Assembly (NCBI RefSeq): GCF_029227855.1
Contig: NZ_CP074356.1
DNA length: 64,000 nucleotides
DNA from: Escherichia coli
GTDB taxonomy: Bacteria > Pseudomonadota > Gammaproteobacteria > Enterobacterales > Enterobacteriaceae
Strand: one strand, 5' to 3'
Shown: positions 5,769-21,263 of the stretch, one piece after another
Layout: every line of letters begins with the position of its first letter
Position numbering within the stretch: position 1 is the stretch's first letter
Translations under genes and position numbers: made by a program
The notes under the pieces: generated by a model
The model's database searches: none
Seen by the model: only the letters and a program-made list of their open reading frames with translations
Told to the model about the DNA's origin: nothing

Positions 5769-6461
5769 CTAGTGATAACCACGCGCGGTCATAAAATCCG
5801 TAATCGCTTTTTCCGCATCAACCAGCACTTGTTCCAGCGGTTGATTGGCATCGATATCAACCAGTTGCGCGCCTCCAAAGGTTAACTGTGGCATTATGGC
5901 TATCTTCCTTTCCAGCGATTCTCTTTTGTGGTCAGGCTTACGCGCGCAGGCCACGTCCAGATCGACATTGAGTTTGATGACCAGATCGGGCTTATGGCTC
6001 GCCATCCAGTGAAACGCTTTACGTTCCTGGCTTGCCAGCCATGAGACAAAACGACCACCTTCAACGTTAGGTGGGAACACCGTACCATCGTAAGCACCAG
6101 GAATTTGGTCCTGAGGATAACGGTCGGTTAGAACAATTAACCCGCGACGACGACAGGCAAGCATATGACGAAAGCGCAGTAAGCGACGGGCGACAAACGC
6201 TGTAATTACCAGCGCCGGAACAGGGCCAGGCAATTTTTTTGCTGTTTTCACCTGATTTCGTTCAATTGTTTTATGTAAGGATTTTCCCATCAACGGTAAT
6301 TTTGTCACTGCACGACCGACATTTCCGGCCTGTTTTCCTAAATGAACTCTTTCGGCAGCACCATATTTTTCGACAACGGTAATGAGATGTTCACACACCG
6401 TTGACTTGCCTGAACCATCGCTACCAATAACGGCAATTAATGGAGGTGTTATTGACTGCAT
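5769..6461 (-). CDS. yghT: YghT, P-loop NTPase of unknown function (230 aa)
   Basis: Walker [14 protein letters not shown] near N-terminus; DRYPQ and ARKPDH motifs shared with YghS and YghR (paralogs). Confidence 0.85.
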
Positions 6462-6634
6462 GAATATATCCTTTAATTTAAATATCCATTAAAAATATTT
6501 ATTTGGTTAATGTGTTTTTATGAAAGCGTAATTCAGGTCAATGTCACAATTAACCATTGTCACAATAAGGTTGAACGGATATTCTGAGCACGGACCACGT
6601 AATATTCAATACATTATTTGCTGCCGGGTTTTTC
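6462..6634. promoter_or_regulatory. Divergent intergenic region yghT <-> yghS (probable promoters)
   Basis: AT-rich 170-bp spacer between divergently oriented starts; no sites mapped by eye. Confidence 0.3.
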
Positions 6635-7348
6635 GTGAATCAACGTAATATGTCAATAATTAATTCCACGCCAGTGCGTGTTATTGCCATTGTAGGATAT
6701 GATGGTTCAGGTAAATCGACCCTCACGGCAAGCCTGGTAAATGAACTGGCAGCAACAATGCCAACAGAACACATTTATCTCGGGCAATCGTCCGGGCGAA
6801 TTGGCGAATGGATTTCACAGCTCCCTGTTATTGGCGCACCTTTTGGGCGTTATTTGCGAAGTAAAGCGGCACATGTGCACGAAAAGCCCTTAACACCGCC
6901 TGGCAATATTACTGCGCTGGTTATCTATCTGCTTTCCTGCTGGCGGGCGTACAAGTTTCGCAAAATGTTGTGTAAAAGCCAGCAAGGCTATCTGCTCATC
7001 ACCGACCGCTACCCGCAGGTTGAAGTGCCGGGTTTTCGCTTTGATGGCCCGCAATTGGCAAAAACCACGGGCGGTAACGGTTGGATAAAAATGTTAAGGC
7101 AGCGCGAGCTGAAGCTGTACCAATGGATGGCGTCTTATTTGCCCGTATTGTTGATTCGTCTTGGCATTGATGAACAAACGGCGTTTGCGCGTAAACCTGA
7201 CCACCAACTGGCGGCGTTACAGGAAAAAATCGCCGTTACGCCGCAACTGACATTCAATGGCGCAAAGATCCTTGAACTGGATGGTCGGCAACCAGCCGAT
7301 GAAATTATGCAAGCGTCACTACGTGCAATTCACGCCGCGCTTCCCTGA
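6635..7348 (+). CDS. yghS: YghS, P-loop NTPase of unknown function (237 aa; start may be GTG 6635 or ATG 6650)
   Basis: Walker A IAIVGYDGSGKSTL; DRYPQ and ARKPDH motifs; paralog of YghR/YghT. Confidence 0.85.
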   Translation: MNQRNMSIINSTPVRVIAIVGYDGSGKSTLTASLVNELAATMPTEHIYLGQSSGRIGEWISQLPVIGAPFGRYLRSKAAHVHEKPLTPPGNITALVIYLLSCWRAYKFRKMLCKSQQGYLLITDRYPQVEVPGFRFDGPQLAKTTGGNGWIKMLRQRELKLYQWMASYLPVLLIRLGIDEQTAFARKPDHQLAALQEKIAVTPQLTFNGAKILELDGRQPADEIMQASLRAIHAALP

Positions 7349-7379
7349 TCACCAAAATGGATAGGGGATGATTTAACGA

Positions 7380-8138
7380 ATGGATGCACTACAAACACAA
7401 ACTGTTAATAGTACAACCGCGCCGCAGCCCAACTACATTCCGGGGCTGATTGCGGTGGTCGGGTGTGATGGCACCGGTAAATCCACACTGACCACCGACC
7501 TGGTGAAATCGCTGCAACAACACTGGCAAACCGAGCGGCGCTATCTGGGGCTGCTCTCCGGCGAAGACGGCGACAAAATCAAACGATTGCCGTTGGTTGG
7601 CGTCTGGCTCGAACGGCGACTGGCGGCCAAATCCTCGAAAACCCAAAGCATGAAAACCAAATCTCCAGCGCTATGGGCGGCGGTGATTATGTACTGCTTC
7701 TCGCTGCGAAGAATGGCGAATCTACGCAAGGTTCAGCGACTGGCGCAAAGTGGCGTTCTGGTGGTCAGCGATCGCTTCCCGCAGGCTGAAATTTCGGGCT
7801 TTTATTATGACGGACCGGGGATCGGCGTCGAACGTGCGACCGGGAAAATCAGCATGTTTCTGGCGCAGCGCGAACGGCGTTTATACCAACAAATGGCGCA
7901 ATACCGTCCTGAATTAATCATTCGTTTGGGGATTGATATTGATACTGCCATCTCCCGCAAGCCTGACCATGACTATGCCGAGCTGCAGGACAAAATCGGC
8001 GTCATGTCGACGATTGGCTATAACGGCTCAAAAATTCTTGAGATTGATTCCAGAGCGCCCTACAGCGAAGTGCTGGAACAGGCACAGAAGGCGGTTTCTC
8101 TGGTTGCCATCGTTTCTGACCGCCGAAGTTTAACTTAA
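7380..8138 (+). CDS. yghR: YghR, P-loop NTPase of unknown function (252 aa)
   Basis: Walker A IAVVGCDGTGKSTL; DRFPQ and SRKPDH motifs; paralog of YghS/YghT. Confidence 0.85.
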   Translation: MDALQTQTVNSTTAPQPNYIPGLIAVVGCDGTGKSTLTTDLVKSLQQHWQTERRYLGLLSGEDGDKIKRLPLVGVWLERRLAAKSSKTQSMKTKSPALWAAVIMYCFSLRRMANLRKVQRLAQSGVLVVSDRFPQAEISGFYYDGPGIGVERATGKISMFLAQRERRLYQQMAQYRPELIIRLGIDIDTAISRKPDHDYAELQDKIGVMSTIGYNGSKILEIDSRAPYSEVLEQAQKAVSLVAIVSDRRSLT

Positions 8139-8183: not shown

Positions 8184-9533
8184 TTGGCGGGTTTTAACAT
8201 CAAACATTGGTTTGCAGATGGCGCGTTTCGCACCATTATTCGCAATAGCGCCTGGTTAGGCTCCAGTAATGTCGTGAGCGCTTTGCTGGGTCTGTTGGCG
8301 CTCTCGTGTGCCGGTAAAGGGATGACGCCCGCCATGTTTGGCGTACTGGTGATTGTGCAATCGTACGCCAAGTCGATCAGCGATTTTATTAAGTTTCAGA
8401 CATGGCAGTTGGTGGTGCAGTACGGAACGCCAGCCTTGACCAACAATAATCCGCAGCAATTTCGCAATGTCGTCTCATTTTCCTTCTCGTTGGATATCGT
8501 CAGCGGCGCGGTGGCGATTGTCGGCGGCATTGCCTTACTCCCTTTTCTTTCCCATTCATTAGGTCTGGATGACCAAAGCTTTTGGCTGGCAGCGCTGTAT
8601 TGCACGCTCATTCCTTCAATGGCTTCCTCCACGCCGACCGGCATTCTGCGTGCGGTAGATCGCTTCGACTTAATTGCTGTACAGCAGGCGACGAAACCTT
8701 TTCTGCGCGCAGCGGGGAGCGTCGTTGCCTGGTATTTTGACTTTGGTTTTGCGGGTTTTGTTATTGCCTGGTACGCCTCGAATCTTGTTGGCGGCACCAT
8801 GTACTGGTGGTTTGCCGCACGTGAATTACGCCGCAGAAATATCCATAACGCGTTCAAATTGAATCTGTTTGAGTCTGCCCGACACATCAAAGGCGCGTGG
8901 AGTTTTGTCTGGTCAACCAACATTGCCCATTCCATCTGGTCGGCGCGTAATTCGTGCAGCACAGTGTTGGTGGGGATCGTGTTAGGACCCGCTGCCGCCG
9001 GGTTATTTAAAATCGCCATGACATTCTTCGACGCCGCCGGAACGCCAGCGGGTTTACTGGGTAAAAGTTTTTACCCAGAGGTGATGCGTTTAGATCCGCG
9101 CACCACCAGACCGTGGTTGTTAGGCGTGAAGTCCGGTTTACTGGCGGGCGGAATCGGTATTCTGGTGGCGCTCGCGGTGTTGATCGTCGGCAAGCCGCTC
9201 ATTTCGCTGGTGTTTGGCGTTAAGTATCTCGAAGCGTATGACCTGATTCAGGTGATGCTGGGCGCAATTGTGATCTCGATGCTGGGCTTCCCTCAGGAGT
9301 CATTGCTATTGATGGCGGGAAAACAGCGCGCTTTTCTCGTGGCGCAAACCATCGCCTCAATCGGCTACATCGTATTGCTGTTCATGTTCTGTCATCTGTT
9401 TGGCGTGCTGGGGGCTGCATTTGCTTACTTCGGTGGGCAATGTCTGGATGTGGTGTTCTCGCTAATTCCGACCTTAAAGGCATTTTTTCAGCGCCATTCC
9501 TTGCTTTATAACTCAGCCGGAGAGAAATCCTGA
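8184..9533 (+). CDS. yghQ: YghQ, polytopic inner-membrane protein, MOP/Wzx-like putative flippase (449 aa as called from TTG start; first in-frame ATG is codon 47)
   Basis: Many hydrophobic segments throughout; N-terminus resembles polysaccharide-transporter family; stop overlaps downstream ATG (ATGA). Confidence 0.8.
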   Translation: MAGFNIKHWFADGAFRTIIRNSAWLGSSNVVSALLGLLALSCAGKGMTPAMFGVLVIVQSYAKSISDFIKFQTWQLVVQYGTPALTNNNPQQFRNVVSFSFSLDIVSGAVAIVGGIALLPFLSHSLGLDDQSFWLAALYCTLIPSMASSTPTGILRAVDRFDLIAVQQATKPFLRAAGSVVAWYFDFGFAGFVIAWYASNLVGGTMYWWFAARELRRRNIHNAFKLNLFESARHIKGAWSFVWSTNIAHSIWSARNSCSTVLVGIVLGPAAAGLFKIAMTFFDAAGTPAGLLGKSFYPEVMRLDPRTTRPWLLGVKSGLLAGGIGILVALAVLIVGKPLISLVFGVKYLEAYDLIQVMLGAIVISMLGFPQESLLLMAGKQRAFLVAQTIASIGYIVLLFMFCHLFGVLGAAFAYFGGQCLDVVFSLIPTLKAFFQRHSLLYNSAGEKS

Positions 9534-10357
9534 TGATGAGAAAATATTTCCCGCTTGAGGCGAGCGAGCGTCTATTTGTTGCGATTGAAGAAGATGATGT
9601 TGTTGATGCACAGGTCAGTTTGCCGCCGACTATCGCACTAAGTTGTACCACCGAAATCATCCATGATAATTACGCGTTATGCCTGCAATTCTGGCTCAAT
9701 GGCGTCAATCGCCAGGAGTTACTGCGTTTAATATGCAAACAGGCCAAAGGCGATGAGCTGACTGCTGATGAGCGCAAACAATTTAAATACATGCGAGCGC
9801 GCTACAAGCACCTGCGTTTTGCGCAACGGCTGTATTTAAAAAAGCATCAGGCCGGATTTTTATTCGGCAAAACGACCGTTTTTTTGGGGCGTTTTCAGGA
9901 CGGCTTTCGTAACGGTAAGAAAAATATTGTGTCGTATTACGGCAACCTGTTACGGGTTTATTTAAGCTCTCCGGTCTGGTCGTTGGTGAACTATTCATTA
10001 CGCCATAGCCAGTTAGAAAGCGTAAGCGGTTTTATTGCCTATCGGCAAAAGCAAATGCATACCCTGAAAGAGATAATTGCCAAATCGCGACTAACTGGCA
10101 GGGAATTTCATGATGTGCGAAAAATCATCAGCCAGCAGGTTTCTTATTACGACACCCTAAGATCGCTTGATCCTGAAAATAAAGAGGCGTTACAGATTTC
10201 CCGCTTCCTCGCCGCCATTAATGGCCTGATGGGGGATAAACACGACGACATGGTGGCGGATGATATGGAAAACCGCCAGTCGTATGATGCACCGATGGCG
10301 CTGGATAGCGATATTCGTCAGCGCTTAGAACTGCTGATTTCGCGTTTTCCGCTATAA
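9533..10357 (+). CDS. Hypothetical soluble protein (274 aa), translationally coupled to yghQ
   Basis: ATG overlaps yghQ stop; no transmembrane segments or signal peptide evident; basic/aromatic-rich helical-looking sequence; no domain recognised by eye. Confidence 0.6.
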   Translation: MMRKYFPLEASERLFVAIEEDDVVDAQVSLPPTIALSCTTEIIHDNYALCLQFWLNGVNRQELLRLICKQAKGDELTADERKQFKYMRARYKHLRFAQRLYLKKHQAGFLFGKTTVFLGRFQDGFRNGKKNIVSYYGNLLRVYLSSPVWSLVNYSLRHSQLESVSGFIAYRQKQMHTLKEIIAKSRLTGREFHDVRKIISQQVSYYDTLRSLDPENKEALQISRFLAAINGLMGDKHDDMVADDMENRQSYDAPMALDSDIRQRLELLISRFPL

Positions 10358-10365
10358 CCGGAGCA

Positions 10366-10929
10366 ATGATGTCATCTCGTTTGATTATTGCGCTGGTTAT
10401 CATGCTCTTAGCCCCGGGTGTGCAGGCGCACAATTTCGTCACTGGTAAAACGGTTACCCCTGTTTATATCCAGGAAGGCGGCGAGCTGCTTCTGAATAGC
10501 GAAGACGAAATTCACTACCAAAAGTGGAACAGCACACAGCTGGCGGGAAAAGTCCGCATTATTCAGTATATCGCCGGGCGTAAGTCGGCGAAGAAAAAGA
10601 ACTCACTGTTAATTAAAGCGGTTGAAGCGGCAAACTTTCCGCAGGATCGTTTTCAGCCCACCACCATTGTGAACACTGATGATGCCATCTTTGGTACCGG
10701 CTATTTTGTCGTTGGCAAAATCGAAAAAAATAAACGCCGCTATCCATGGGCGCAATTCGTTATTGACGGCAATGGACAGGGACGCGTTGCCTGGCACTTG
10801 CAGGAGCAGAGTTCAACCATTCTGGTGCTGAATAAAACCGGGCAAATTCAGTGGGCAAAGGACGGCAGCCTGACGCCGGAAGAGGTAGAACATGTCATTG
10901 CGCTGGCGCAGAAACTGATCAATGAATAA
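10366..10929 (+). CDS. Hypothetical exported (periplasmic) protein, 187 aa
   Basis: N-terminal signal peptide MMSSRLIIALVIMLLAPGVQA followed by hydrophilic mature domain; starts 8 nt after the previous stop. Confidence 0.6.
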   Translation: MMSSRLIIALVIMLLAPGVQAHNFVTGKTVTPVYIQEGGELLLNSEDEIHYQKWNSTQLAGKVRIIQYIAGRKSAKKKNSLLIKAVEAANFPQDRFQPTTIVNTDDAIFGTGYFVVGKIEKNKRRYPWAQFVIDGNGQGRVAWHLQEQSSTILVLNKTGQIQWAKDGSLTPEEVEHVIALAQKLINE

Positions 10930-10959
10930 AAAATTCAAAGGATTGAGGGCGTTAGTGAG

Positions 10960-12030
10960 ATGAAGCTGGTTGAACACTACATCATGCGTGGTACGCGCCG
11001 TCTGGTGCTGATTATCGTCGGTTTTCTGATCTTTATTTTCGCCAGCTACTCCGCACAGCGTTATCTGACCGAAGCGGCAAATGGGACATTAGCTCTTGAT
11101 GTTGTGCTGGATATTGTTTTCTACAAGGTGCTGATTGCACTGGAGATGTTGTTACCTGTTGGACTGTATGTGTCAGTTGGCGTGACGCTAGGGCAGATGT
11201 ATACCGACTCGGAAATTACCGCTATTTCTGCGGCGGGGGGCAGTCCGGGACGCTTGTACAAAGCCGTTCTTTATCTGGCGATACCGCTAAGTATTTTTGT
11301 CACCCTTCTGTCGATGTATGGTCGTCCGTGGGCTTATGCGCAGATTTATCAACTGGAGCAACAGTCACAGTCGGAGCTGGATGTTCGCCAGTTGCGGGCA
11401 AAGAAATTTAACACTAACGATAACGGACGAATGATCCTTTCGCAGACGGTTGATCAGGATAATAATCGCCTGACTGACGCGCTGATTTATACTTCTACTG
11501 CCAATCGAACCCGCATTTTCCGCGCCCGTTCGGTTGATGTGGTTGACCCATCACCTGAGAAACCGACCGTTATGTTGCATAACGGGACCGCCTATCTTCT
11601 CGATCATCAGGGGCGTGACGACAACGAACAGATCTACCGTAATCTGCAATTACATCTGAATCCGCTGGATCAAAGCCCTAACGTCAAACGCAAAGCAAAA
11701 TCGGTCACGGAGCTGGCGCGCTCCGCCTTTCCTGCCGATCATGCCGAACTGCAATGGCGACAAAGCCGTGGCCTGACAGCGTTGTTGATGGCGCTGCTGG
11801 CCATTTCATTAAGTCGGGTAAAACCGCGGCAAGGGCGATTTTCAACGTTATTGCCACTGACGTTGCTGTTTGTTGCCATTTTTTATGGCGGCGACGTCTG
11901 CCGTACGCTGGTGGCTAACGGCGCGATTCCCCTCATTCCTGGTTTGTGGTTAGTACCCGGACTCATGCTAATGGGCCTGCTGATGCTGGTCGCACGCGAC
12001 TTCTCTTTGCTGCAGAAATTTTCCCGATGA
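10960..12030 (+). CDS. LptF-like permease (YjgP/YjgQ family), 356 aa
   Basis: N-terminus MKLVEHYIMRGTRRLVLIIVGFLIFIF typical of LptF/LptG; hydrophobic N- and C-terminal segments flanking a large hydrophilic loop; ~360 aa; RBS upstream. Confidence 0.75.
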   Translation: MKLVEHYIMRGTRRLVLIIVGFLIFIFASYSAQRYLTEAANGTLALDVVLDIVFYKVLIALEMLLPVGLYVSVGVTLGQMYTDSEITAISAAGGSPGRLYKAVLYLAIPLSIFVTLLSMYGRPWAYAQIYQLEQQSQSELDVRQLRAKKFNTNDNGRMILSQTVDQDNNRLTDALIYTSTANRTRIFRARSVDVVDPSPEKPTVMLHNGTAYLLDHQGRDDNEQIYRNLQLHLNPLDQSPNVKRKAKSVTELARSAFPADHAELQWRQSRGLTALLMALLAISLSRVKPRQGRFSTLLPLTLLFVAIFYGGDVCRTLVANGAIPLIPGLWLVPGLMLMGLLMLVARDFSLLQKFSR

Positions 12031-13106
12031 ATGTTTTCAGTCGCTATTTAATCCGTCATCTCTTTCTCGGTTTTGCCGCCGCCGCAGGGCTATTGCTGCC
12101 GCTTTTTACTACCTTCAACCTGATTAACGAACTGGATGATGTCAGCCCGGGCGGTTATCGCTGGACTCAGGCGGTGCTGGTGGTGCTGATGACCTTACCG
12201 CGTACACTGGTCGAACTTTCGCCGTTTATCGCCTTATTGGGAGGGATTGTTGGCCTGGGGCAGTTATCGAAAAACAGTGAGCTTACCGCCATTCGCAGCA
12301 CTGGGTTTTCTATCTTCCGTATTGCACTGGTGGCGCTGGTTGCCGGGATATTGTGGACTGTTTCGTTAGGCGCGATAGATGAGTGGGTGGCGTCGCCATT
12401 GCAGCAACAGGCGCTGCAAATCAAATCGACTGCCACCGCGTTGGGGGAGGACGATGACATTACCGGCAATATGCTTTGGGCCAGGCGCGGTAATGAATTT
12501 GTGACGGTGAAATCGCTGAACGAGCAGGGCCAGCCTGTGGGCGTGGAGATATTTCATTATCGCGACGATCTCTCGCTCGAATCCTACATTTTTGCACGCA
12601 GTGCCTCCATTGAAGACGACAAAACATGGATCCTGCATGGTGTGAATCATAAAAAATGGTTGAATGGCAAAGAAACGCTGGAAACATCAGATAATCTTGC
12701 CTGGCAATCGGCCTTCACCAGTATGAATCTTGAAGAGTTATCGATGCCGGGAAATACTTTTTCTGTCCGTCAACTTAATCATTACATCCATTATTTGCAG
12801 GAAACTGGGCAACCCAGCAGCGAATACCGCCTTGCACTGTGGGAAAAACTGGGACAACCCATCCTGACCCTGGCGATGATTTTGCTGGCTGTGCCGTTTA
12901 CCTTTAGTGCCCCGCGTTCGCCAGGGATGGGTAGCCGTCTCGCTGTAGGCGTCATCGTTGGCTTACTCACCTGGATCAGCTATCAAATCATGGTCAATCT
13001 GGGGTTGCTATTTGCGTTGAGCGCACCTGTTACCGCGCTCGGTTTACCGGTAGCGTTTGTGCTGGTGGCGTTGAGCCTGGTGTATTGGTATGACAGACAA
13101 CATTAA
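12027..13106 (+). CDS. LptG-like permease (YjgP/YjgQ family), 359 aa
   Basis: Track ORF trimmed to ATG overlapping upstream stop (ATGA); MNVFSRYLIRHLFLGFAAAAGLLLPLF typical LptF/G N-terminus; same topology pattern as partner. Confidence 0.75.
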   Translation: MNVFSRYLIRHLFLGFAAAAGLLLPLFTTFNLINELDDVSPGGYRWTQAVLVVLMTLPRTLVELSPFIALLGGIVGLGQLSKNSELTAIRSTGFSIFRIALVALVAGILWTVSLGAIDEWVASPLQQQALQIKSTATALGEDDDITGNMLWARRGNEFVTVKSLNEQGQPVGVEIFHYRDDLSLESYIFARSASIEDDKTWILHGVNHKKWLNGKETLETSDNLAWQSAFTSMNLEELSMPGNTFSVRQLNHYIHYLQETGQPSSEYRLALWEKLGQPILTLAMILLAVPFTFSAPRSPGMGSRLAVGVIVGLLTWISYQIMVNLGLLFALSAPVTALGLPVAFVLVALSLVYWYDRQH

Positions 13107-13107
13107 A

Positions 13108-13136
13108 CCCGCCGTGGCGCAGCGCCACAGCGGGCT
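13108..13136. terminator. Palindromic stem-loop between convergent operons (probable bidirectional terminator)
   Basis: cccgccgtggcgc a gcgccacagcggg inverted repeat in the 34-bp gap between the LptG-like stop and the alpha-oxoamine synthase stop. Confidence 0.45.
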
Positions 13137-13140
13137 CACA

Positions 13141-14313
13141 TTACTGCTTCAGAGTAGCGAACGCTTGAATGATGGCATCAATTTGCTCACGACTGTGGGC
13201 AGCGTTTACGCTACAGCGCAGCAGCGTGATGCCTGCAGGCGCGGCAGGTGGCAGGATAAGATTCACATAAACGCCCAGCGAAATAAGCTCGCGCCAGATG
13301 CGTAAACCGTCCTCTTTCGAACCGATTATTACTGGCACTACCGGGCTAATATGTGAACTTAACTCGTAACCCAGTTTTTGCAGACCGTCATACAGATGGT
13401 TGGCGTTATCCATCAGCTTTTGCCGCAGCTCTGGTTGTGAGGCAATGGTTCTTAACGACGAGCGCACGGTCGCAATGCAGGACGGAGAAGGAGAGGCGGT
13501 AAAAATATACGGGCGGCTGCCGTAGCGCAGCACTTCCATCGCTTCCGAACCGACAGCAAAACCGCCAATCGAGGCCAGACTTTTACTGAAAGTACCAACG
13601 ATAATATCCACATCATCTTCAACGCCAACGGCTTCAGCCAGTCCGCGCCCCGTTGCGCCTAACACGCCAAACGAATGCGCTTCATCGACAATCAAATAAC
13701 CACCGAGACGACGTTTGATATCAACAATTTCCGCCAGCGGCGCAACGTCACCGAGCATACTGTAGATGCCTTCAACGATGATAATCGCCTCTTTTGCCCG
13801 TTCACCGAGGCGAACCATGCGCCGTTCCAGATCTTTAGCATCGTTATGGCGGAAACGAATAATTTCCGCGCCACCGAGAGAACAGGCGTCATAAATACTG
13901 GCGTGGCTGTCGGCATCCAGTAACACCACGGCGTTATGGTCGGCAAGTGCGCTGATGACGCCTAAATTAGCGGTATAACCGGTTGAAAAAACGATAGCGG
14001 TAGGGCGATTAAAAAACTCGGCGATCTCTTTCTCTAACGCCAGATGCGGCGCATAACTGCCGTTTGCCATACGAGAACCGGTGGTGCCGGTGCCTTGGGC
14101 CGCTAACGCTGCCTGACCTTCGGCGATGGCATCATGATTAAAGGTTAAACCGAGATAATTATTGGTCCCGGCCAGAATCACTTTTTTATTGCCGATCCGA
14201 CCTTCGGTGGCGGAATACACTTCATCAATACAGGTGCCAAACGGTGTTAACCCGTTGTCACTAAATTGCAGTCGCTCGCCAGCAAGGCGCGCATATTTAT
14301 CGTATAGCCCCAT
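13141..14313 (-). CDS. PLP-dependent alpha-oxoamine synthase, serine palmitoyltransferase-like (390 aa)
   Basis: Class-II aminotransferase fold signature with Schiff-base lysine in GTFSKSLASIGGF (the TFSKS variant is typical of SPT rather than BioF/KBL); Gly-rich loop TGTTGSRMANGS; start overlaps ACP stop (TAATG). Confidence 0.85.
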   Translation of the reverse strand: MGLYDKYARLAGERLQFSDNGLTPFGTCIDEVYSATEGRIGNKKVILAGTNNYLGLTFNHDAIAEGQAALAAQGTGTTGSRMANGSYAPHLALEKEIAEFFNRPTAIVFSTGYTANLGVISALADHNAVVLLDADSHASIYDACSLGGAEIIRFRHNDAKDLERRMVRLGERAKEAIIIVEGIYSMLGDVAPLAEIVDIKRRLGGYLIVDEAHSFGVLGATGRGLAEAVGVEDDVDIIVGTFSKSLASIGGFAVGSEAMEVLRYGSRPYIFTASPSPSCIATVRSSLRTIASQPELRQKLMDNANHLYDGLQKLGYELSSHISPVVPVIIGSKEDGLRIWRELISLGVYVNLILPPAAPAGITLLRCSVNAAHSREQIDAIIQAFATLKQ

Positions 14314-14561
14314 TATTTATTCTCCAGCCATGGAAGTAGTGTTTCCATTAATTGCGCAGGGGTTTTGACATCCAGCAGAATATTAATAGGAATGGAAATA
14401 TCGAATCTGTCTTCCAGCATCATTAAGAGATCCATCACTTTGATCGACTCCAGGCCAAGATCGTTGACGAGATCGCTGTCGGGCTTAATTTCCACACCGT
14501 TTTCGACCAAATCCTGTAAACAGGAAAGGATGTAATCCATTACTATTTCACGATTTACCAT
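14313..14561 (-). CDS. Acyl carrier protein (82 aa)
   Basis: Small acidic protein with phosphopantetheine-attachment motif DLGLESIKVMDL; located between reductase and alpha-oxoamine synthase. Confidence 0.8.
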   Translation of the reverse strand: MVNREIVMDYILSCLQDLVENGVEIKPDSDLVNDLGLESIKVMDLLMMLEDRFDISIPINILLDVKTPAQLMETLLPWLENK

Positions 14562-14592
14562 AGAAACGTTAACACACCTTTAAACAAGACAA

Positions 14593-15507
14593 TCAAAATA
14601 GCCCGTTGCGTAATGCGTGTTCCAGGCTAATCCCGGGAAACCAATTAATATCTTCAGAAATACGGTTATTACTTGCCGACCAGTCGGCGTGGGTTAATTC
14701 ACGAATTTTCGAGCGGGTCAGCATAGGTTCTTTACCTGCCAGGCGACTCAACGCGGTACTGATATCCGCAAGGCAGGTGAGTACCGGCAGAGGAATACCA
14801 ACCATTCGCACGGAACCACAACGGGCGTCGGCGGCAAGCTGTCGTACGTGTTGCCAGTCATAGCCGCCGGGGACGCCATCGCATAATTCATAGGTTTGCG
14901 TCTGTACAGTTTCGGCGCTTAACCACTGCCCCACGGCTTGCGCAAAATCGGTGATGTGCAGGAAAGAGAGTTGTGTATCTGGCGCACCAAGTCGTGGCAG
15001 CAGGCCGCGCAGCATCCAGTCAAACAGCGGTTTTAACTCTTTATCGCCGGGACCATACACGGCTGTCGGGCGAAAAACGCCCAGCGTAATTTCATCAGCC
15101 ATTGCAGTCAGCCGTTGTTCGGCGACGTGTTTGGAATTTGCGTACCAGGAGAGTTCGGGATGGCGCGCCGCCAGCGAAGAGATAAACAGAAAACGTTGGC
15201 AAAAGCCGCTCTCTTTTGCCGCTTGCATCAGTCGCAGGCTGCCGTCAACGTTACAGCGGGTAAAAATCTCTTCTTTGTGCCCGCGCACTTGCCCGGCGCA
15301 ATGGACCACCGCGCTGGCTCCGGCAACCAGTTCGCTAAGTGAATGAGTATCTTCCAGAGAACCGCGCACCCAGGTGAGATTATCATTGACGTGAGCGCGG
15401 GCAGTACGCGTCAATGCGCGAACGTGAAAGCCGCGGGCGAGCAGGTTATCGATAATATATTTACCGATAAACCCGGTAGCGCCCGTCACCGCGACAGTTT
15501 GATTCAT
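14593..15507 (-). CDS. NAD(P)-dependent epimerase/dehydratase-family (extended SDR) reductase, 304 aa
   Basis: N-terminal Rossmann motif VTGATGFIG; catalytic YANSK (YxxxK); start overlaps upstream stop (ATGA). Confidence 0.8.
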   Translation of the reverse strand: MNQTVAVTGATGFIGKYIIDNLLARGFHVRALTRTARAHVNDNLTWVRGSLEDTHSLSELVAGASAVVHCAGQVRGHKEEIFTRCNVDGSLRLMQAAKESGFCQRFLFISSLAARHPELSWYANSKHVAEQRLTAMADEITLGVFRPTAVYGPGDKELKPLFDWMLRGLLPRLGAPDTQLSFLHITDFAQAVGQWLSAETVQTQTYELCDGVPGGYDWQHVRQLAADARCGSVRMVGIPLPVLTCLADISTALSRLAGKEPMLTRSKIRELTHADWSASNNRISEDINWFPGISLEHALRNGLF

Positions 15508-17228
15508 GCCAGGGATTCCTGCACATGAAGGCTTGCAGCATAAGCCTTCTGATAACGTTTTTTCGCTTCCGCACGGGCAGGCTTGCCGGAGGACGTTCGG
15601 GGAATACTGTGGGGCGGCAACAGATCGATAGCCGCGGTCACGCCAAATTCGCTTTGGATCCGTGCTGCCAGCGCGTGGATAAGCTGCCCGCGACGTTCTT
15701 CATCGCTGATCCGACACTGGATCTGCAAAATGATTTTTTCCTGGGCGGTAACAAAAGCAATCGCATCGCCAGAATGAATTTCCGGTTCCTGTTCCGCAAT
15801 ATATTCAATATCCTGCGGCCAGATATTACGGCCACGAATAATAATCAGATCTTTAATGCGTCCGGTGACATACAGATAACCGTCCAGCAGATAACCGAGG
15901 TCGCCGGTGTCTAACCAGCCCGTCGCGGCAATCTCGTCTTGTGAAATCTGGTCGCCAAAGTAACCGCTCATCAGGCTAGGGCCGGAGATGCAAATATGGC
16001 CTACCACACGTTCCGCGACAGGTATACCTGCTTCATTGCGGATTTCAATGCCATGTTCCGGCAACGCTTTACCGCAGTTGACGAAAGTCGATACGGCGCG
16101 TGTTTCAGCATCCGGCGCGACGGCTTTGCCCTGATATTCGAGGATGTCGCGATCCACTTCGTTAACCACAACCCCGGAAGCTTCATCAGAGAAGCTGACA
16201 GCCAGCGCATTTTCTGCCAGTCCGTAGCACGGCATGAAAGTTTTATCGTCAAAGTTGACCTGACGGAAACATTCAGCGAATTGATGGAGTTGTTCTGCGG
16301 AGATGGGTTCTGCACCAATACCAGCGACGCGCCAGCAGGAAAGATCCAGTTCAGCGAGATCTTTTTCATTCACGCGGCGCTGGCACAATTCATAGCCAAA
16401 CGGCGGCGCAACGGAAACGGTGCCGCGATTTTTACTGATCAATTTAAGCCATTGCAGAGGACGCATGGCAAAATCCTGAGTGCGCAAATAATCTACTGAA
16501 AGCTGCGTGGCGACGGGGGTCAGGAGAAAGCCGACCAGTCCCATATCATGGTAGAAAGGCAGCCAGGAGACGCAGCGGTCGCCAGGGCGTAATTTAATGC
16601 CATCGTGGCTTATAGCACGTAGATTAGCCATCACTTCGCGATGGGTGATAATGACGCCACGGGGAAAACGGGTGCTGCCGGAGGTGTACTGGAGGTAGGC
16701 GATATCGTTCGGAACTGGATGCTGGAGTGCAACATCGGCTTCCGGTAATGCCTTAAACCAGGCGTGGCTTAAAACATGTAATTCGGGGTTGTTGTTATGC
16801 GTCGCGGCATTGACCAGCGGTAACCACTCATCACCAGTGATAATGGCTGCGGGCTGGCAACTTGTCAGTAAACCCTGCAGTTTGGCGCTCCAGGAATCCC
16901 GCTGACCGACGCCCATTGGAATCGCCAACGGGACGGCGACTAAGCCGGCATACTGGCAGGAAAAAAAAGCCTCTACGAACCCGCTACTGGTTTCGGCAAT
17001 CAGCGCCACGCGATCGCCTTTTTTCAGGTTCAGCGATAACAACCGCTTCGCACCAGCTTCGGCACGCGCTTTTAACGTCTGATATTCCAGTTGATCTTCA
17101 AGTTGGCAACGTCTGTCATAAAAATTCATTCCGGCGCTACTCAGAGCGGCGTAGTCCAAAGCATCAACCAGCGTTGGAAAATCGGCATAGCGCATAGGTA
17201 GGGAATGCGTAAAGATTTTATTAGACAT
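15504..17228 (-). CDS. Fatty acyl-AMP ligase / acyl-ACP synthetase-like adenylating enzyme (~574 aa; track ORF extends to TTG at 17255)
   Basis: AMP-binding core YTSGSTRFPRGV; WLPFYHDMGLVG motif and overall length resemble FAAL-type enzymes; first gene of the minus-strand operon. Start chosen at first ATG (MSNKIFTHSL). Confidence 0.8.
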   Translation of the reverse strand: MSNKIFTHSLPMRYADFPTLVDALDYAALSSAGMNFYDRRCQLEDQLEYQTLKARAEAGAKRLLSLNLKKGDRVALIAETSSGFVEAFFSCQYAGLVAVPLAIPMGVGQRDSWSAKLQGLLTSCQPAAIITGDEWLPLVNAATHNNNPELHVLSHAWFKALPEADVALQHPVPNDIAYLQYTSGSTRFPRGVIITHREVMANLRAISHDGIKLRPGDRCVSWLPFYHDMGLVGFLLTPVATQLSVDYLRTQDFAMRPLQWLKLISKNRGTVSVAPPFGYELCQRRVNEKDLAELDLSCWRVAGIGAEPISAEQLHQFAECFRQVNFDDKTFMPCYGLAENALAVSFSDEASGVVVNEVDRDILEYQGKAVAPDAETRAVSTFVNCGKALPEHGIEIRNEAGIPVAERVVGHICISGPSLMSGYFGDQISQDEIAATGWLDTGDLGYLLDGYLYVTGRIKDLIIIRGRNIWPQDIEYIAEQEPEIHSGDAIAFVTAQEKIILQIQCRISDEERRGQLIHALAARIQSEFGVTAAIDLLPPHSIPRTSSGKPARAEAKKRYQKAYAASLHVQESLA

Positions 17229-17599
17229 ATACACCACGAAAAAATTGGATATCAAAAATAAAATGACAATAATGCGGTGGATTATATAGGCATAAAAGAT
17301 AAATGAGATAATATTTTCATCAGTGTGAAAATGAACATTGATTTAAATAATGAGTTTGAGTTTTTTTGTTTTTATTGTGAATGATATTTAATTTATGAAT
17401 GTATTAAGAAGAAGCCTTGTCCGGTCGCCTTAAATCGACAAAAGGCATTGTGGCGCTTCTGTGTAGTCTCTGACCTTATCGTAATCATTAATAAATACTA
17501 TTTATTCGTCGTTTGTATTCATTGGGTTGATTATTAAGGTGCCGTTCGTTGCTGTTGCAACCTGTTTTTCACCGTTAATTATTTGTTACCCACAGAACT
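17229..17599. promoter_or_regulatory. AT-rich divergent control region between lipid operon (-) and yghO (+)
   Basis: ~370 bp strongly AT-rich non-coding DNA with A/T tracts; no ORF with coding character; expected site of promoters for both flanking units. Confidence 0.35.
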
Positions 17600-18742
17600 A
17601 TGGAATGCGATCTGCTGATGATTAAAATTGAAAAAGTAATTAATAAAAATGACCTTAAGGCATTTATCGCTTTTCCGTCATCACTTTATCCCGACGATCC
17701 AAACTGGATACCCCCTTTATTCATTGAACGCAACGAGCATTTGTCTGCGAAAAATCCGGGGACGGACCATATCATCTGGCAGGCGTGGGTGGCAAAAAAA
17801 GCGGGGCAGATAGTTGGGCGTATTACCGCGCAAATAGATACCTTGCACCGCGAGCGTTACGGTGAAGATACCGGTCATTTCGGCATGATTGACGCCATTG
17901 ATGATCCGCAGGTTTTTGCCGCGTTGTTTGGCGCAGCGGAAGCGTGGTTGAAGTCACAAGGTGCAAGTAAGATCAGCGGTCCTTTCAGCCTGAATATCAA
18001 TCAGGAAAGCGGATTACTGATTGAAGGTTTCGATACACCACCCTGTGCGATGATGCCGCACGGTAAACCGTGGTATGCCGCGCATATTGAACAATTGGGT
18101 TATCACAAAGGCATTGATTTACTAGCGTGGTGGATGCAGCGAACCGATCTCACTTTCTCTCCGGCGCTAAAAAAACTGATGGATCAGGTGCGTAAGAAGG
18201 TGACCATTCGCTGCATCAATCGCCAGCGGTTTGCCGAAGAGATGCAGATCCTGCGTGAGATTTTCAACTCTGGCTGGCAGCACAACTGGGGATTTGTGCC
18301 GTTTACCGAACATGAATTCGCGACTATGGGCGATCAACTTAAATATCTGGTGCCGGACGATATGATCTACATCGCTGAGATTGATTCTGCACCCTGCGCG
18401 TTTATTGTTGGCTTGCCAAACATCAACGAGGCGATTGCCGATCTGAACGGATCGCTCTTTCCCTTCGGCTGGGCAAAATTGCTGTGGCGTTTAAAAGTCA
18501 GCGGTGTGCGAACTGCGCGAGTACCGCTGATGGGCGTGCGGGACGAGTATCAGTTTAGCCGCATCGGCCCGGTGATTGCGCTGTTATTGATTGAAGCCTT
18601 ACGCGATCCGTTTGCCCGCCGGAAGATCGATGCGCTGGAGATGTCATGGATCCTCGAAACCAATACAGGCATGAATAACATGCTGGAACGCATTGGGGCG
18701 GAGCCGTACAAGCGTTACCGATTGTATGAAAAGCAGATTTGA
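17600..18742 (+). CDS. yghO: YghO-family protein, intact (380 aa); possible acyl-CoA N-acyltransferase-like fold
   Basis: Uninterrupted ORF, soluble; position matches yghO next to glcC. Fold assignment is tentative. Confidence 0.7.
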   Translation: MECDLLMIKIEKVINKNDLKAFIAFPSSLYPDDPNWIPPLFIERNEHLSAKNPGTDHIIWQAWVAKKAGQIVGRITAQIDTLHRERYGEDTGHFGMIDAIDDPQVFAALFGAAEAWLKSQGASKISGPFSLNINQESGLLIEGFDTPPCAMMPHGKPWYAAHIEQLGYHKGIDLLAWWMQRTDLTFSPALKKLMDQVRKKVTIRCINRQRFAEEMQILREIFNSGWQHNWGFVPFTEHEFATMGDQLKYLVPDDMIYIAEIDSAPCAFIVGLPNINEAIADLNGSLFPFGWAKLLWRLKVSGVRTARVPLMGVRDEYQFSRIGPVIALLLIEALRDPFARRKIDALEMSWILETNTGMNNMLERIGAEPYKRYRLYEKQI

Positions 18743-18748
18743 TGGCAG

Positions 18749-19513
18749 TCACCCCTGCATCATCTCCAGCGGCACCGCCGAGCGAATCAAATGGTGGCCT
18801 TCCAGCTCGATATCGTGGAGATTCTTTTTCACGGTCCGCACATGATCGCGTGCTGCGCGCTGGGCGACGTGCGGCAGCCGCTGCAACACCGCGTTGTAGA
18901 TCCGCGCATGCTGGCGATCGATCTGCTTTTTTTGCTGTGGTCGATGGTAGAGATTATTTACGCTGGCAAACACTGAATTAAACATCAGATCGGTCAATGA
19001 TTGCAGCGTAAACACCAACACCTGATTGTGAGAAGCCTGACAAATGGCGAGATGGAAAGCGTGATCCAACTGCGCATGTTCGATCAGCGAAATCTCTTTG
19101 TTGTTCTCACTGGCGGCGAGCATTTTTTCATAACAGCGGGTTATCACAACAAAATCAGCCTGGGTTCCCAGCGTTGCCGCCAGCCTTGCCGATTCGCCCT
19201 CCAGCAATGCGCGAACGTCGAGCAGATCGTACAGCGTTCGCGGCTGCGTGCTGAACAGATGAATTAGCGGGCTGGTGTCCTGCACCCGATTAAGCCGTGC
19301 GACACGAGAATCGCGACCCTGCGCTGTTTCAATAATCCCGCGCCCGCGCAGCACGGTCAGCCCTTCACGCAGTGCGGAGCGTGAGAAGCCGAGCTTTTCA
19401 CACAGTCGACGTTCCGAGGGAAGCGGCTGACCGACCTTCAGTACGCCGTCGATAATTAACCGTTCGATACTCTCTGCAACCACTTCGCAAATAGGGCGAC
19501 GTTCATCTTTCAT
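18749..19513 (-). CDS. glcC: GlcC, GntR/FadR-family transcriptional activator of glc operon (254 aa)
   Basis: Track ORF trimmed to MKDERRPICEVVAESIERLI...; N-terminal winged-HTH; divergent from glcD. Confidence 0.9.
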   Translation of the reverse strand: MKDERRPICEVVAESIERLIIDGVLKVGQPLPSERRLCEKLGFSRSALREGLTVLRGRGIIETAQGRDSRVARLNRVQDTSPLIHLFSTQPRTLYDLLDVRALLEGESARLAATLGTQADFVVITRCYEKMLAASENNKEISLIEHAQLDHAFHLAICQASHNQVLVFTLQSLTDLMFNSVFASVNNLYHRPQQKKQIDRQHARIYNAVLQRLPHVAQRAARDHVRTVKKNLHDIELEGHHLIRSAVPLEMMQG

Positions 19514-19763
19514 TCCCGGACCTCGTGCACAGGTAGGACCAATTTTTCTGTTCTTAACTCGCAAAACACGCACATCACGTAAGTGATTATGTTACATCAA
19601 TTTAACATTAAGTTAACCAAGACAAGGTCACAGAGCTGGAAAAAAAATGGTCTGACCGGTAGCTAAAGAGATAGACGAAAACGAAAAGCCCGCTTAATAA
19701 CTGTTCACAGAAGCAGCGCGCAAAAATCAGCTGCCACACAACACAACAAAGCGAAGCCTACTC
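19514..19763. promoter_or_regulatory. glcC-glcD divergent promoter/operator region
   Basis: 250-bp intergenic region between divergent glcC and glcD starts; known architecture of glc locus; individual sites not mapped. Confidence 0.5.
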
Positions 19764-21263
19764 ATGAGCATCTTGTACGAAGAGCGTCTTGATGGCGCTT
19801 TACCCGATGTCGACCGCACATCGGTACTGATGGCACTGCGTGAGCATGTCCCTGGACTTGAGATCCTGCATACCGATGAGGAGATCATTCCTTATGAGTG
19901 TGACGGGTTGAGCGCGTATCGCACGCGTCCATTACTGGTTGTTCTGCCTAAGCAAATGGAACAGGTGACAGCGATTCTGGCTGTTTGTCACCGCCTGCGT
20001 GTATCGGTGGTGACCCGTGGTGCAGGCACCGGGCTTTCTGGTGGCGCGCTGCCGCTGGAAAAAGGTGTGTTGTTGGTGATGGCGCGCTTTAAAGAGATCC
20101 TCGACATTAACCCCGTTGGTCGCCGCGCGCGCGTGCAGCCGGGCGTGCGTAATCTGGCGATCTCCCAGGCCGTTGCGCCGCATAATCTCTATTACGCGCC
20201 GGATCCTTCCTCACAAATCGCCTGTTCAATTGGCGGCAATGTGGCGGAAAATGCCGGTGGCGTTCACTGCCTGAAATATGGTCTGACCGTACATAACCTG
20301 CTGAAAATTGAAGTGCAAACGCTGGACGGCGAGGCGCTGACGCTGGGATCGGATGCGCTGGATTCTCCTGGTTTTGACCTGCTGGCGCTGTTCACCGGAT
20401 CGGAAGGTATGCTCGGCGTGACCACCGAAGTGACGGTAAAACTGCTGCCGAAGCCGCCCGTGGCTCGGGTTCTGTTAGCCAGCTTTGACTCGGTAGAAAA
20501 AGCCGGACTTGCGGTTGGTGACATCATCGCCAATGGCATTATCCCCGGCGGGCTGGAGATGATGGATAACCTGTCGATCCGCGCAGCGGAAGATTTTATT
20601 CATGCCGGTTATCCCGTCGACGCCGAAGCGATTTTGTTATGCGAGCTGGACGGCGTGGAGTCTGACGTACAGGAAGACTGCGAGCGGGTTAACGACATCT
20701 TGTTGAAAGCGGGCGCGACTGACGTCCGTCTGGCACAGGACGAAGCAGAGCGCGTACGTTTCTGGGCCGGTCGCAAAAATGCGTTCCCGGCGGTAGGACG
20801 TATCTCCCCGGATTACTACTGCATGGATGGCACCATCCCGCGCCGCGCCCTGCCTGGCGTACTGGAAGGCATTGCCCGTTTATCGCAGCAATATGATTTA
20901 CGCGTTGCTAACGTCTTTCATGCCGGAGATGGCAACATGCACCCGTTAATCCTTTTCGATGCCAACGAACCCGGTGAATTTGCCCGCGCGGAAGAGCTGG
21001 GCGGGAAGATCCTCGAACTCTGCGTTGAAGTTGGCGGCAGCATCAGTGGGGAACATGGCATCGGGCGCGAAAAAATCAATCAAATGTGCGCCCAGTTCAA
21101 CAGCGATGAAATCACGACCTTCCATGCGGTCAAGGCGGCGTTTGACCCCGATGGTTTGCTGAACCCGGGGAAAAACATTCCCACGCTACACCGCTGTGCT
21201 GAATTTGGTGCCATGCATGTGCATCACGGTCATTTACCTTTCCCTGAACTGGAGCGTTTCTGA
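19764..21263 (+). CDS. glcD: Glycolate oxidase FAD-linked subunit GlcD (499 aa)
   Basis: FAD-binding PCMH-type domain, length and operon context. Confidence 0.92.
   Translation: MSILYEERLDGALPDVDRTSVLMALREHVPGLEILHTDEEIIPYECDGLSAYRTRPLLVVLPKQMEQVTAILAVCHRLRVSVVTRGAGTGLSGGALPLEKGVLLVMARFKEILDINPVGRRARVQPGVRNLAISQAVAPHNLYYAPDPSSQIACSIGGNVAENAGGVHCLKYGLTVHNLLKIEVQTLDGEALTLGSDALDSPGFDLLALFTGSEGMLGVTTEVTVKLLPKPPVARVLLASFDSVEKAGLAVGDIIANGIIPGGLEMMDNLSIRAAEDFIHAGYPVDAEAILLCELDGVESDVQEDCERVNDILLKAGATDVRLAQDEAERVRFWAGRKNAFPAVGRISPDYYCMDGTIPRRALPGVLEGIARLSQQYDLRVANVFHAGDGNMHPLILFDANEPGEFARAEELGGKILELCVEVGGSISGEHGIGREKINQMCAQFNSDEITTFHAVKAAFDPDGLLNPGKNIPTLHRCAEFGAMHVHHGHLPFPELERF

Follow-up and report, generated by a model that had tools for sequence, protein, structure and literature searches.

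We analyzed positions 8184–10929 of a 64,000-nucleotide stretch of Escherichia coli DNA (contig NZ_CP074356.1 of assembly GCF_029227855.1; the whole stretch is hereafter called the window), which hold three consecutive genes on the plus strand: yghQ, encoding a flippase-family membrane protein; orf274, encoding a soluble protein of 274 amino acids (aa); and ytfJ2, encoding an exported protein of 187 aa. These genes lie mid-way in the E. coli sphingolipid island (spt, acpR, cerR, aasR and yghO), a setting overlooked in a previous reading made without database searches (hereafter the sequence-only reading). We consider it fairly probable (roughly 60%) that the three genes are part of the half of the enterobacterial sphingolipid island devoted to head-group formation and export. 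The most likely role of the block would be the building, flipping and export of an anionic phosphorylated ceramide. This reading, every substrate and step of which we infer, is based on the observed gene structures, a truncation in E. coli K-12, purifying selection, genomic linkage, a kept gene overlap, and fold and family assignments.

Linkage to sphingolipid genes and coupling of yghQ with orf274

For the comparative analysis, one genome per species was scanned with the orf274 family alignment, and all open reading frames (ORFs) in the 79 loci obtained were compared with the proteins of the window; spt was scored as linked when located within 10 kb of the orf274 homologue. In the Enterobacterales (50 loci, about 16 genera), all 13 island genes were found within 20 kb, in at least four arrangements: the spt operon lies either downstream and convergent or upstream and co-directional, and in two further arrangements the permease genes lptF2 and lptG2 are split off to the far side or the kinase-like genes are moved. 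As the association is kept through at least four gene orders, it survives rearrangement. Linked spt was present in 43 of these 50 loci, the remainder being mostly cut contigs or lone paralogues. The activities of Spt, AcpR and AasR have been demonstrated in E. coli B (PMC9386255).

A different association was observed in the Rhodanobacteraceae, where all five loci show the order yghT, yghS, yghR, aasR, cerR, acpR, spt, yghQ, orf274, with aasR-cerR-acpR-spt-yghQ-orf274 on one strand. Linkage to the sphingolipid locus (spt, acpR, cerR, aasR and cerS/yghO) is hence found both in Enterobacterales and in Rhodanobacteraceae. Neither ytfJ2 nor lptF2/G2 was seen in the five Rhodanobacteraceae loci; instead, an OMF-RND-RND-MFP efflux set is strung with yghO, and this set may represent an alternative sphingolipid export route by non-orthologous replacement. 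In Rhodanobacter sp. L36 (locus L056, positions 10804–20758), the OMF, RND, RND, MFP, yghO string is convergent to orf274 and MdtABC-like, and the same string likely occurs also in loci L059, L060 and L062.

In the Sphingomonadales, a kinase-kinase-yghQ-orf274 block stands alone in 13 of 15 loci, with identities to the E. coli proteins of 50–57% for YghQ and 38–47% for orf274. This four-gene block lies apart from spt, which was within 10 kb in none of the 15 loci, and according to the literature sphingolipid genes are scattered in this order. In Acetobacter, Azotobacter, Azomonas, Pseudomonas and Desulfuromusa, orf274 is located beside a gene for a YghT-like kinase, sometimes together with a distant MOP flippase and an LptF/G permease. 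Overall, most of the taxa that yielded the family have YghT-like P-loop genes alongside their orf274 homologues, and the two directly adjoin each other in Novosphingobium, Sphingobium, Acetobacter, Pseudomonas, Azotobacter and Desulfuromusa.

The orf274 gene (9533–10357, plus strand) begins within the yghQ stop codon (TGATG, 9531–9535, plus strand): the TGA at 9531–9533 shares one base with the ATG, and a GGAG is located 9 nucleotides (nt) 5′ of the latter. The two genes were adjacent in 63 loci from three orders, and in 56 of these the in-frame orf274 start closest to the yghQ stop either overlaps it, by 4 nt (ATGA-type, 32 loci), by 1 nt (12 loci) or by a longer stretch (6 loci), or follows it without gap (6 loci). 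In 4 further loci the start lies at most 4 nt past the stop. Altogether, 61 of the 63 loci have an in-frame orf274 start between a point 26 nt within yghQ and one 4 nt beyond the yghQ stop. The overlap with a downstream soluble protein had been pointed out in the sequence-only reading; it is present as described, and the coupling is much older than E. coli. The encoded protein is basic (isoelectric point 9.2), with no hydrophobic segment or signal peptide seen, indicative of a cytoplasmic location, and is called 'hypothetical protein' in the NCBI annotation used for comparison, that of a strain 100% identical across 8184–10929.

An AlphaFold2 model of orf274 built from 24 homologues was confident (predicted local distance difference test score of 92) and all-helical, and its Foldseek comparison with the PDB ranked two CHAD entries at the top with high probability, at E-values short of significance; the modelled structure thus points to a CHAD-type helical fold. 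The sequences support this assignment through intermediates. A HMMER search of 1.84 billion representatives delineated a small family (205 clusters at E ≤0.001), in which the Pfam CHAD family was matched by 27 of 81 distant representatives at E <0.01 (best 1.7e-8), with no other family recurring among the 81, and by one of 24 close relatives (E 0.003). Four fusion relatives (P0429, P0490, P0498 and P0507) score 31–41 bits against a CHAD cut-off of 25.6, and two of them (P0490 and P0507; metagenomic, 976–983 aa) consist of an APH/choline-kinase-type phosphotransferase fused to two CHAD-type repeats. A phmmer search and two profile searches with orf274 against PDB sequences returned nothing. Histidines and basic residues are conserved in a CHAD-like manner: R88, D123, H193 and R196 are invariant in the 81 sequences, K92, R95, H105, K197 and H237 are at least 90% conserved, and D238 is near-invariant. 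This set of arginine, lysine, histidine and aspartate residues fits a predicted anion-binding or metal-phosphate site. We therefore describe orf274 as a divergent CHAD-type protein on the grounds of its fold and of the indirect link through intermediate sequences, orf274 itself staying below the Pfam threshold.

The same residues can be read in another way, namely that orf274, instead of serving YghQ as a binding or adaptor partner, is a catalytic head-group enzyme of the same pathway, for example a metal-dependent phosphotransferase or phosphohydrolase with the lipid phosphate as its substrate. We regard this as possible but rather unlikely. It would agree with the joint conservation of D21, D22, D123, D207 and H237-D238 in a 17-sequence alignment, with the invariance of D123 and H193 in the larger set, and with the presence of the gene next to only a kinase, without yghQ, in Pseudomonas, Azotobacter and Desulfuromusa. 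However, the nearest folds are CHAD domains, which to our knowledge are polyphosphate-binding modules with no catalysis known, and the kept stop/start overlap with the gene of a membrane transporter suggests a stoichiometric partner.

Two additional observations concern orf274 relatives outside the island. Pluralibacter gergoviae and a Pluralibacter metagenome-assembled genome (L026 and L035) carry a second, lone orf274 paralogue, 57–60% identical and with no island genes within 10 kb. In another locus (L091, 6781–9272), a 423-aa CHAD-type relative adjoins a DUF3419 gene; we take DUF3419 to be the BtaA-like family of betaine-lipid synthesis, a possible further link to lipids.

YghQ and its truncation in K-12

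The yghQ ORF (8184–9533, plus strand) encodes 449 aa from a TTG start, and the NCBI annotation places start and end at the same positions (WP_000896871.1). The earliest in-frame ATG is codon 47 and would yield 403 aa. Residues 7–46 are strongly conserved in the Serratia, Rhodanobacter and Novosphingobium orthologues, where they are among the best-conserved parts of the protein, and the Pfam match begins at residue 19; the upstream TTG is therefore the true start, and the conserved N-terminus rules out the codon-47 ATG. Orthologues measure 444–450 aa and cover 98–100% of the query, with both termini conserved across orders. YghQ matches PF01943 (Polysacc_synt; residues 19–280) with 42.0 bits against a cut-off of 28.2 and PF13440 with 31.6 bits against 23, its C-terminal part gives weak matches to SpoVB and MATE-type models, and a simple hydropathy scan reveals some ten or more hydrophobic stretches, of which three follow residue 355. 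The two Pfam scores establish YghQ as a member of the MOP/Polysacc_synt (Wzx-type) flippase family, from which flipping activity is predicted, and the gene is under strong constraint, with a ratio of non-synonymous to synonymous substitution rates (dN/dS) of 0.03 against other Escherichia lineages. The lengths given in the sequence-only reading for the TTG start and, approximately, for the first ATG (about 400 aa), as well as its flippase-like label, thus stand.

The family assignment also leaves room for an ordinary Wzx-type flippase for undecaprenyl-diphosphate-linked sugars, with a block unrelated to sphingolipids and an accidental adjacency to spt. The Pfam family is indeed a polysaccharide flippase family, the NCBI label for YghQ is 'lipopolysaccharide biosynthesis protein', and a glycosyltransferase gene adjoins a distant YghQ homologue in Acetobacter. 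However, no gene for a glycosyltransferase, an initiating phosphotransferase, a polymerase or a chain-length protein is present in the blocks of Enterobacterales, Rhodanobacteraceae and Sphingomonadales, the linkage to spt is kept through four rearrangements, yghQ lies directly 3′ of spt in Rhodanobacteraceae, and the equivalog model of the colanic-acid flippase WzxC (NF007773) gives 33.4 bits against a cut-off of 273. A glycan flippase is therefore improbable in our view.

The sequence-only reading gave about 355 aa for K-12 YghQ and regarded the difference as consistent with a K-12 copy altered at a deletion/insertion-sequence junction. An alignment of the K-12 locus (L002) to the window by blastn bears this out precisely: K-12 yghQ aligns with window positions 8184–9252 only (bases 1–1069 of the query) and retains codons 1–355 exactly, followed by TAG and then the IS5 terminal repeat GGAAGGTGCGAATAAG. 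The breakpoint is in codon 356 (9249–9252, plus strand), and IS5 takes the place of an 8.39-kb stretch (9253–17639) as judged from the alignment and the annotation of both loci. The difference between 449 and 355 residues is thus real and C-terminal, and the choice of start codon is not its cause. The genes orf274, ytfJ2, lptF2, lptG2, spt, acpR, cerR and aasR are deleted completely, together with the last 94 codons of yghQ and roughly 13 codons at the beginning of yghO. As annotated, K-12 yghO starts within the IS5 end (window 17600–17639; K-12 locus L002, 10230–10263), and the N-terminus of K-12 YghO is therefore foreign. The four-base flanks of IS5 are unequal, TTAG on one side and TTAA on the other, so that no simple insertion has taken place.

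The lost YghQ residues 356–449 are highly conserved across orders and contain three hydrophobic segments; K-12 YghQ is therefore a stump. Taken together, these data indicate that K-12 has lost the sphingolipid pathway through an IS5-associated 8.4-kb deletion, leaving a 355-aa YghQ remainder behind. The NCBI annotation of K-12 derivatives already flags yghQ as 'missing C-terminus', and literature on K-12 knockouts and over-expression still handles the 355-aa form as an ordinary gene. A reported two-fold change in the minimum inhibitory concentration of chlorhexidine upon deletion of K-12 yghQ concerns this truncated gene and is not used as evidence here.

Across 5426 complete E. coli genomes, at least 80% of 8184–10929, which we scored as the full block, is present in 4128 (76%), so that the two downstream ORFs are no peculiarity of this strain, and the exact K-12 junction occurs in 347. 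Partial block deletions with differing breakpoints in other genomes suggest that the island decays repeatedly. The aasR gene is an intact ORF in the window (15504–17255, minus strand) but is annotated as frameshifted in strain GN06156 (L001, 19321–21010).

One could argue that E. coli retains the locus as a silent or decaying remnant, its three ORFs intact but disused. In favour of this, 24% of complete genomes have lost the block or carry it cut, at several different breakpoints, aasR is frameshifted in one strain, and no product is reported in the literature searched. On the other hand, all eleven island genes tested against other Escherichia lineages show dN/dS values of 0.03–0.16 (dS 0.2–0.8), indicative of purifying selection within Escherichia, the ORFs are intact in 4128 genomes, and the E. 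coli B enzymes are active (PMC9386255). We thus rate a disused remnant as slightly less probable still than a glycan flippase. Homologues of the three genes in several orders have identities ranging from 97% to about 30%; with this spread and the dN/dS values, the three ORFs are not chance ORFs.

YtfJ2 and the neighbouring genes

The third gene, ytfJ2 (10366–10929, plus strand), encodes a 187-aa paralogue of YtfJ; the NCBI annotation names it 'YtfJ family protein' and starts it one codon later (186 aa). The N-terminus carries a typical Sec signal peptide (10366–10428, plus strand; MMSSRLIIALVIMLLAPGVQA, followed by HN), hydrophobic and ending in a VQA cleavage motif, with no lipobox cysteine, in agreement with the export proposed in the sequence-only reading. 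As suggested there, both downstream proteins were searched against Pfam and NCBIfam, which assigned the 187-aa protein to the YtfJ family and left the 274-aa protein unmatched directly. YtfJ2 scores 203.6 bits against PF09695 (cut-off 24) and 215.3 against TIGR01626 (cut-off 151.1), and is 54% identical over its full length to the canonical YtfJ (b4216), which K-12 keeps. It has no sequence relative in the PDB, and the YtfJ literature searched reports no function for the family. In our data set, ytfJ2 is confined to the Enterobacterales, the very taxa whose loci contain lptF2/G2, and remains adjacent to orf274 where lptF2/G2 relocate.

YtfJ2 has a thioredoxin fold, and mature YtfJ2 contains no cysteine. 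The conserved family motif IAGRxSAKKKN (GRKSAKKKN in YtfJ2) occupies the loop and helix start after strand 63–70, presumably where a CxxC would sit in a thioredoxin fold. A periplasmic thiol-disulfide oxidoreductase or peroxiredoxin, as the fold alone might suggest, is very improbable, since the mature protein lacks cysteine, the family has no conserved cysteine column, and this basic motif occupies the inferred CxxC position; a redox role is ruled out.

Upstream of yghQ, three P-loop kinase-like paralogues are encoded: yghT (5769–6461, minus strand, 230 aa; Walker A GSDGSGKS and a DRY motif), divergent from the operon, yghS (6635–7348, plus strand, 237 aa; Walker A and DRY motifs), and yghR (7380–8138, plus strand, 252 aa), which ends 45 nt 5′ of yghQ. 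YghS is 44% identical to YghR and 36% to YghT, and all three carry Walker A and DR(Y/F) motifs. No PDB relative of YghR was found by sequence. We also considered YghR, YghS and YghT as homologues of the Caulobacter ceramide kinase CpgB, which is ruled out as CpgB is of the LCB5/diacylglycerol-kinase type. Downstream of ytfJ2 lie lptF2 (10960–12030, plus strand, 356 aa; PF03739, TIGR04407), a paralogue of the lipopolysaccharide-export permease gene lptF, and lptG2 (12027–13106, plus strand, 359 aa), an lptG paralogue whose start overlaps lptF2 by 4 nt. A hairpin with a 16-bp stem (13104–13138), likely a two-way terminator, separates lptG2 from the convergent sphingoid-base operon spt-acpR-cerR-aasR (13141–17255, minus strand; ORFs and annotation), which is followed by yghO (17600–18742, plus strand), annotated as a ceramide synthase-type N-acyltransferase (PMC9386255). 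NCBI names LptF2 and LptG2 'LPS export ABC transporter permease LptF/LptG' (320 bits versus a cut-off of 230, and 305 versus 240) and calls yghT and yghS 'dTMP kinase' (TIGR00041, 25 bits versus a cut-off of 83); these names are probably misleading.

The gaps from yghS to lptG2 are 31, 45, −1, 8, 30 and −4 nt, and yghS-yghR-yghQ-orf274-ytfJ2-lptF2-lptG2 would probably form one seven-gene transcription unit. Co-transcription of the yghQ block with the LptFG-like pair, as suggested in the sequence-only reading, is plausible from this spacing and the single terminator-like hairpin. A promoter-like site upstream of yghS (6557–6585, plus strand; 9/12 consensus positions) is weak evidence, the number of such sites in the region being not above the shuffled expectation in our consensus scan.

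Synonymous divergence is uneven along the island: in comparison with other Escherichia lineages, dS is 0.5–0.78 in yghQ, orf274, ytfJ2 and lptG2 versus 0.24–0.38 in yghRST, spt and yghO on either side, a roughly two-fold excess of the centre (8184–13106) over the flanks (5769–8138 and 13141–18742). This doubling suggests a mosaic or recombined island centre. The window is identical to strain GN06156 over 8184–10929 only, which fits a mosaic centre.

Proposed pathway and comparison with known systems

In the pathway that we propose, ceramide would be synthesized on the cytoplasmic side of the inner membrane, where YghR, YghS and YghT may add an anionic, phosphate-containing head group. The orf274 protein, made in step with YghQ, could bind this head group or the kinases and work with the flippase, which would carry the lipid over to the periplasmic leaflet. 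Its extraction from the membrane would then fall to LptF2 and LptG2, presumably driven by LptB, and YtfJ2 may handle its anionic head group on the periplasmic side.

Several results weigh against this proposal. The literature searched reports no lipid product for the E. coli island, MOP flippases usually carry undecaprenyl-diphosphate-linked glycans, and a full copy of the block is missing in 24% of complete E. coli genomes, which, like the aasR frameshift in GN06156, indicates a dispensable locus. The CHAD assignment of orf274 has weak Foldseek support (non-significant E-values of at least 0.1, TM-scores of 0.42–0.46); orf274 itself matches nothing in Pfam or NCBIfam, failing to reach the threshold of CHAD (PF05235), and hhalign comparisons of two orf274 family profiles with E. 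coli YgiF gave no match. The assignment of YghR, YghS and YghT as kinases consists of motifs and of matches to dTMP-kinase models below their cut-offs. YtfJ is retained in K-12, which has no sphingolipid genes, and the base function of the YtfJ family is therefore not sphingolipid-specific. Finally, the Tam41-like protein, the LCB5 kinase and the CDP-alcohol transferase of Caulobacter have no counterpart in the E. coli island, and Caulobacter chemistry is therefore not transferable.

A more specific version of the proposal, which we advance as doubtful, is that kinases, CHAD-type protein and MOP flippase form a hitherto undescribed module shared by enterobacteria, Rhodanobacteraceae and sphingomonads that acts on a ceramide di- or oligophosphate, with YtfJ2 standing in for LptC2. 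The thymidylate-kinase-fold kinases would form phosphoanhydride bonds on ceramide, like nucleotide-monophosphate kinases, the CHAD-type protein, docked on the flippase, would bind the phosphate chain, and the flippase would carry a lipid diphosphate-like substrate, as Wzx does with undecaprenyl diphosphate-linked units. YtfJ2 would then be a new periplasmic part of the LptF2/G2 route in Enterobacterales, replacing LptC2.

The K-12 truncation (RefSeq annotation), the island itself (E. coli B work) and LptF2/G2 (Caulobacter) are already on record. New are the ancient coupling of yghQ and orf274, kept in Enterobacterales, Rhodanobacteraceae and Sphingomonadales, the recognition of orf274 as a CHAD-type protein with its usual YghT-like kinase partnership, and a cysteine-free, basic YtfJ paralogue in the island. 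In the literature we found no discussion of yghQ, orf274 or the YtfJ paralogue in a sphingolipid setting, and our searches returned nothing that links yghQ, yghR, yghS, yghT or CHAD with sphingolipids, or that concerns sphingolipids in Serratia or Enterobacteriaceae. Gram-negative sphingolipid flipping and export beyond LptF2/G2 were called still unknown in 2026 work on Caulobacter (bioRxiv 10.64898/2026.04.12.717747). YghQ, its CHAD-type partner and YtfJ2 provide three widely conserved candidates for sphingolipid export in a genetically easy organism. Pathogens and BL21 are among the approximately three quarters of complete E. coli genomes that carry the pathway, which the reference strain K-12 lacks, and an anionic outer-membrane lipid could alter susceptibility to polymyxin and detergents as well as immune recognition.

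Compared with known MOP flippases (Wzx, MurJ, SpoVB), YghQ fits a multi-helix flippase in length and hydrophobic pattern, yet it is the orthologue of no named Wzx, as the WzxC score (33 bits versus 273) illustrates, and has no glycan genes nearby. We know of no translational coupling of Wzx or MurJ to a soluble CHAD-type protein. Among CHAD proteins (PF05235, Ricinus 6qv5, Chlorobium 3e0s, Streptomyces PptA 6rn5 and the E. coli YgiF C-terminus), orf274 stands apart: it and its close relatives remain under the Pfam threshold, its profiles do not match YgiF, and the genes that accompany it, in lipid loci, encode a flippase and P-loop kinases, CYTH triphosphatases and polyphosphate kinases not being among them. 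YtfJ2 shares signal peptide and conserved motifs with YtfJ/HI0045 at 54% identity, but it is an additional copy that occurs only alongside the sphingolipid island and that K-12 has lost. It differs from TlpA/DsbE/ResA and peroxiredoxins by its lack of cysteine and by the basic motif that occupies the inferred active-site position.

The closest parallel is the Caulobacter crescentus locus (CC_1152–CC_1168), in which, as in E. coli, a Polysacc_synt protein and a second LptF/LptG pair lie beside spt, acpR, cerR, aasR and cerS. Caulobacter LptF2 and LptG2 are needed for anionic sphingolipid export, clearing this lipid from the inner membrane, bind LptB, and can be deleted only if the anionic sphingolipid is not made; the E. 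coli UTI89 locus is depicted in the same study (bioRxiv 10.64898/2026.04.12.717747). A sphingolipid-dependent loss phenotype has been shown for Caulobacter LptF2, LptG2 and LptC2 only. CC_1166, a proposed sphingolipid flippase, belongs to the same Pfam family as YghQ (PMC11324152, S1 Text), and we link the two through this shared InterPro/Pfam family. The E. coli island has no LptC2, none of CpgA-D, no phosphoesterase and no HIT protein, and carries three P-loop kinase-like proteins, a CHAD-type protein and a YtfJ paralogue in place of the Caulobacter head-group enzymes. The enterobacterial lipid thus probably differs from that of Caulobacter, the locus predicting an unlike head-group chemistry, and YghQ, orf274 and YtfJ2 together appear to constitute a distinct variant among bacterial systems for sphingolipid export and provide testable candidates for its components.

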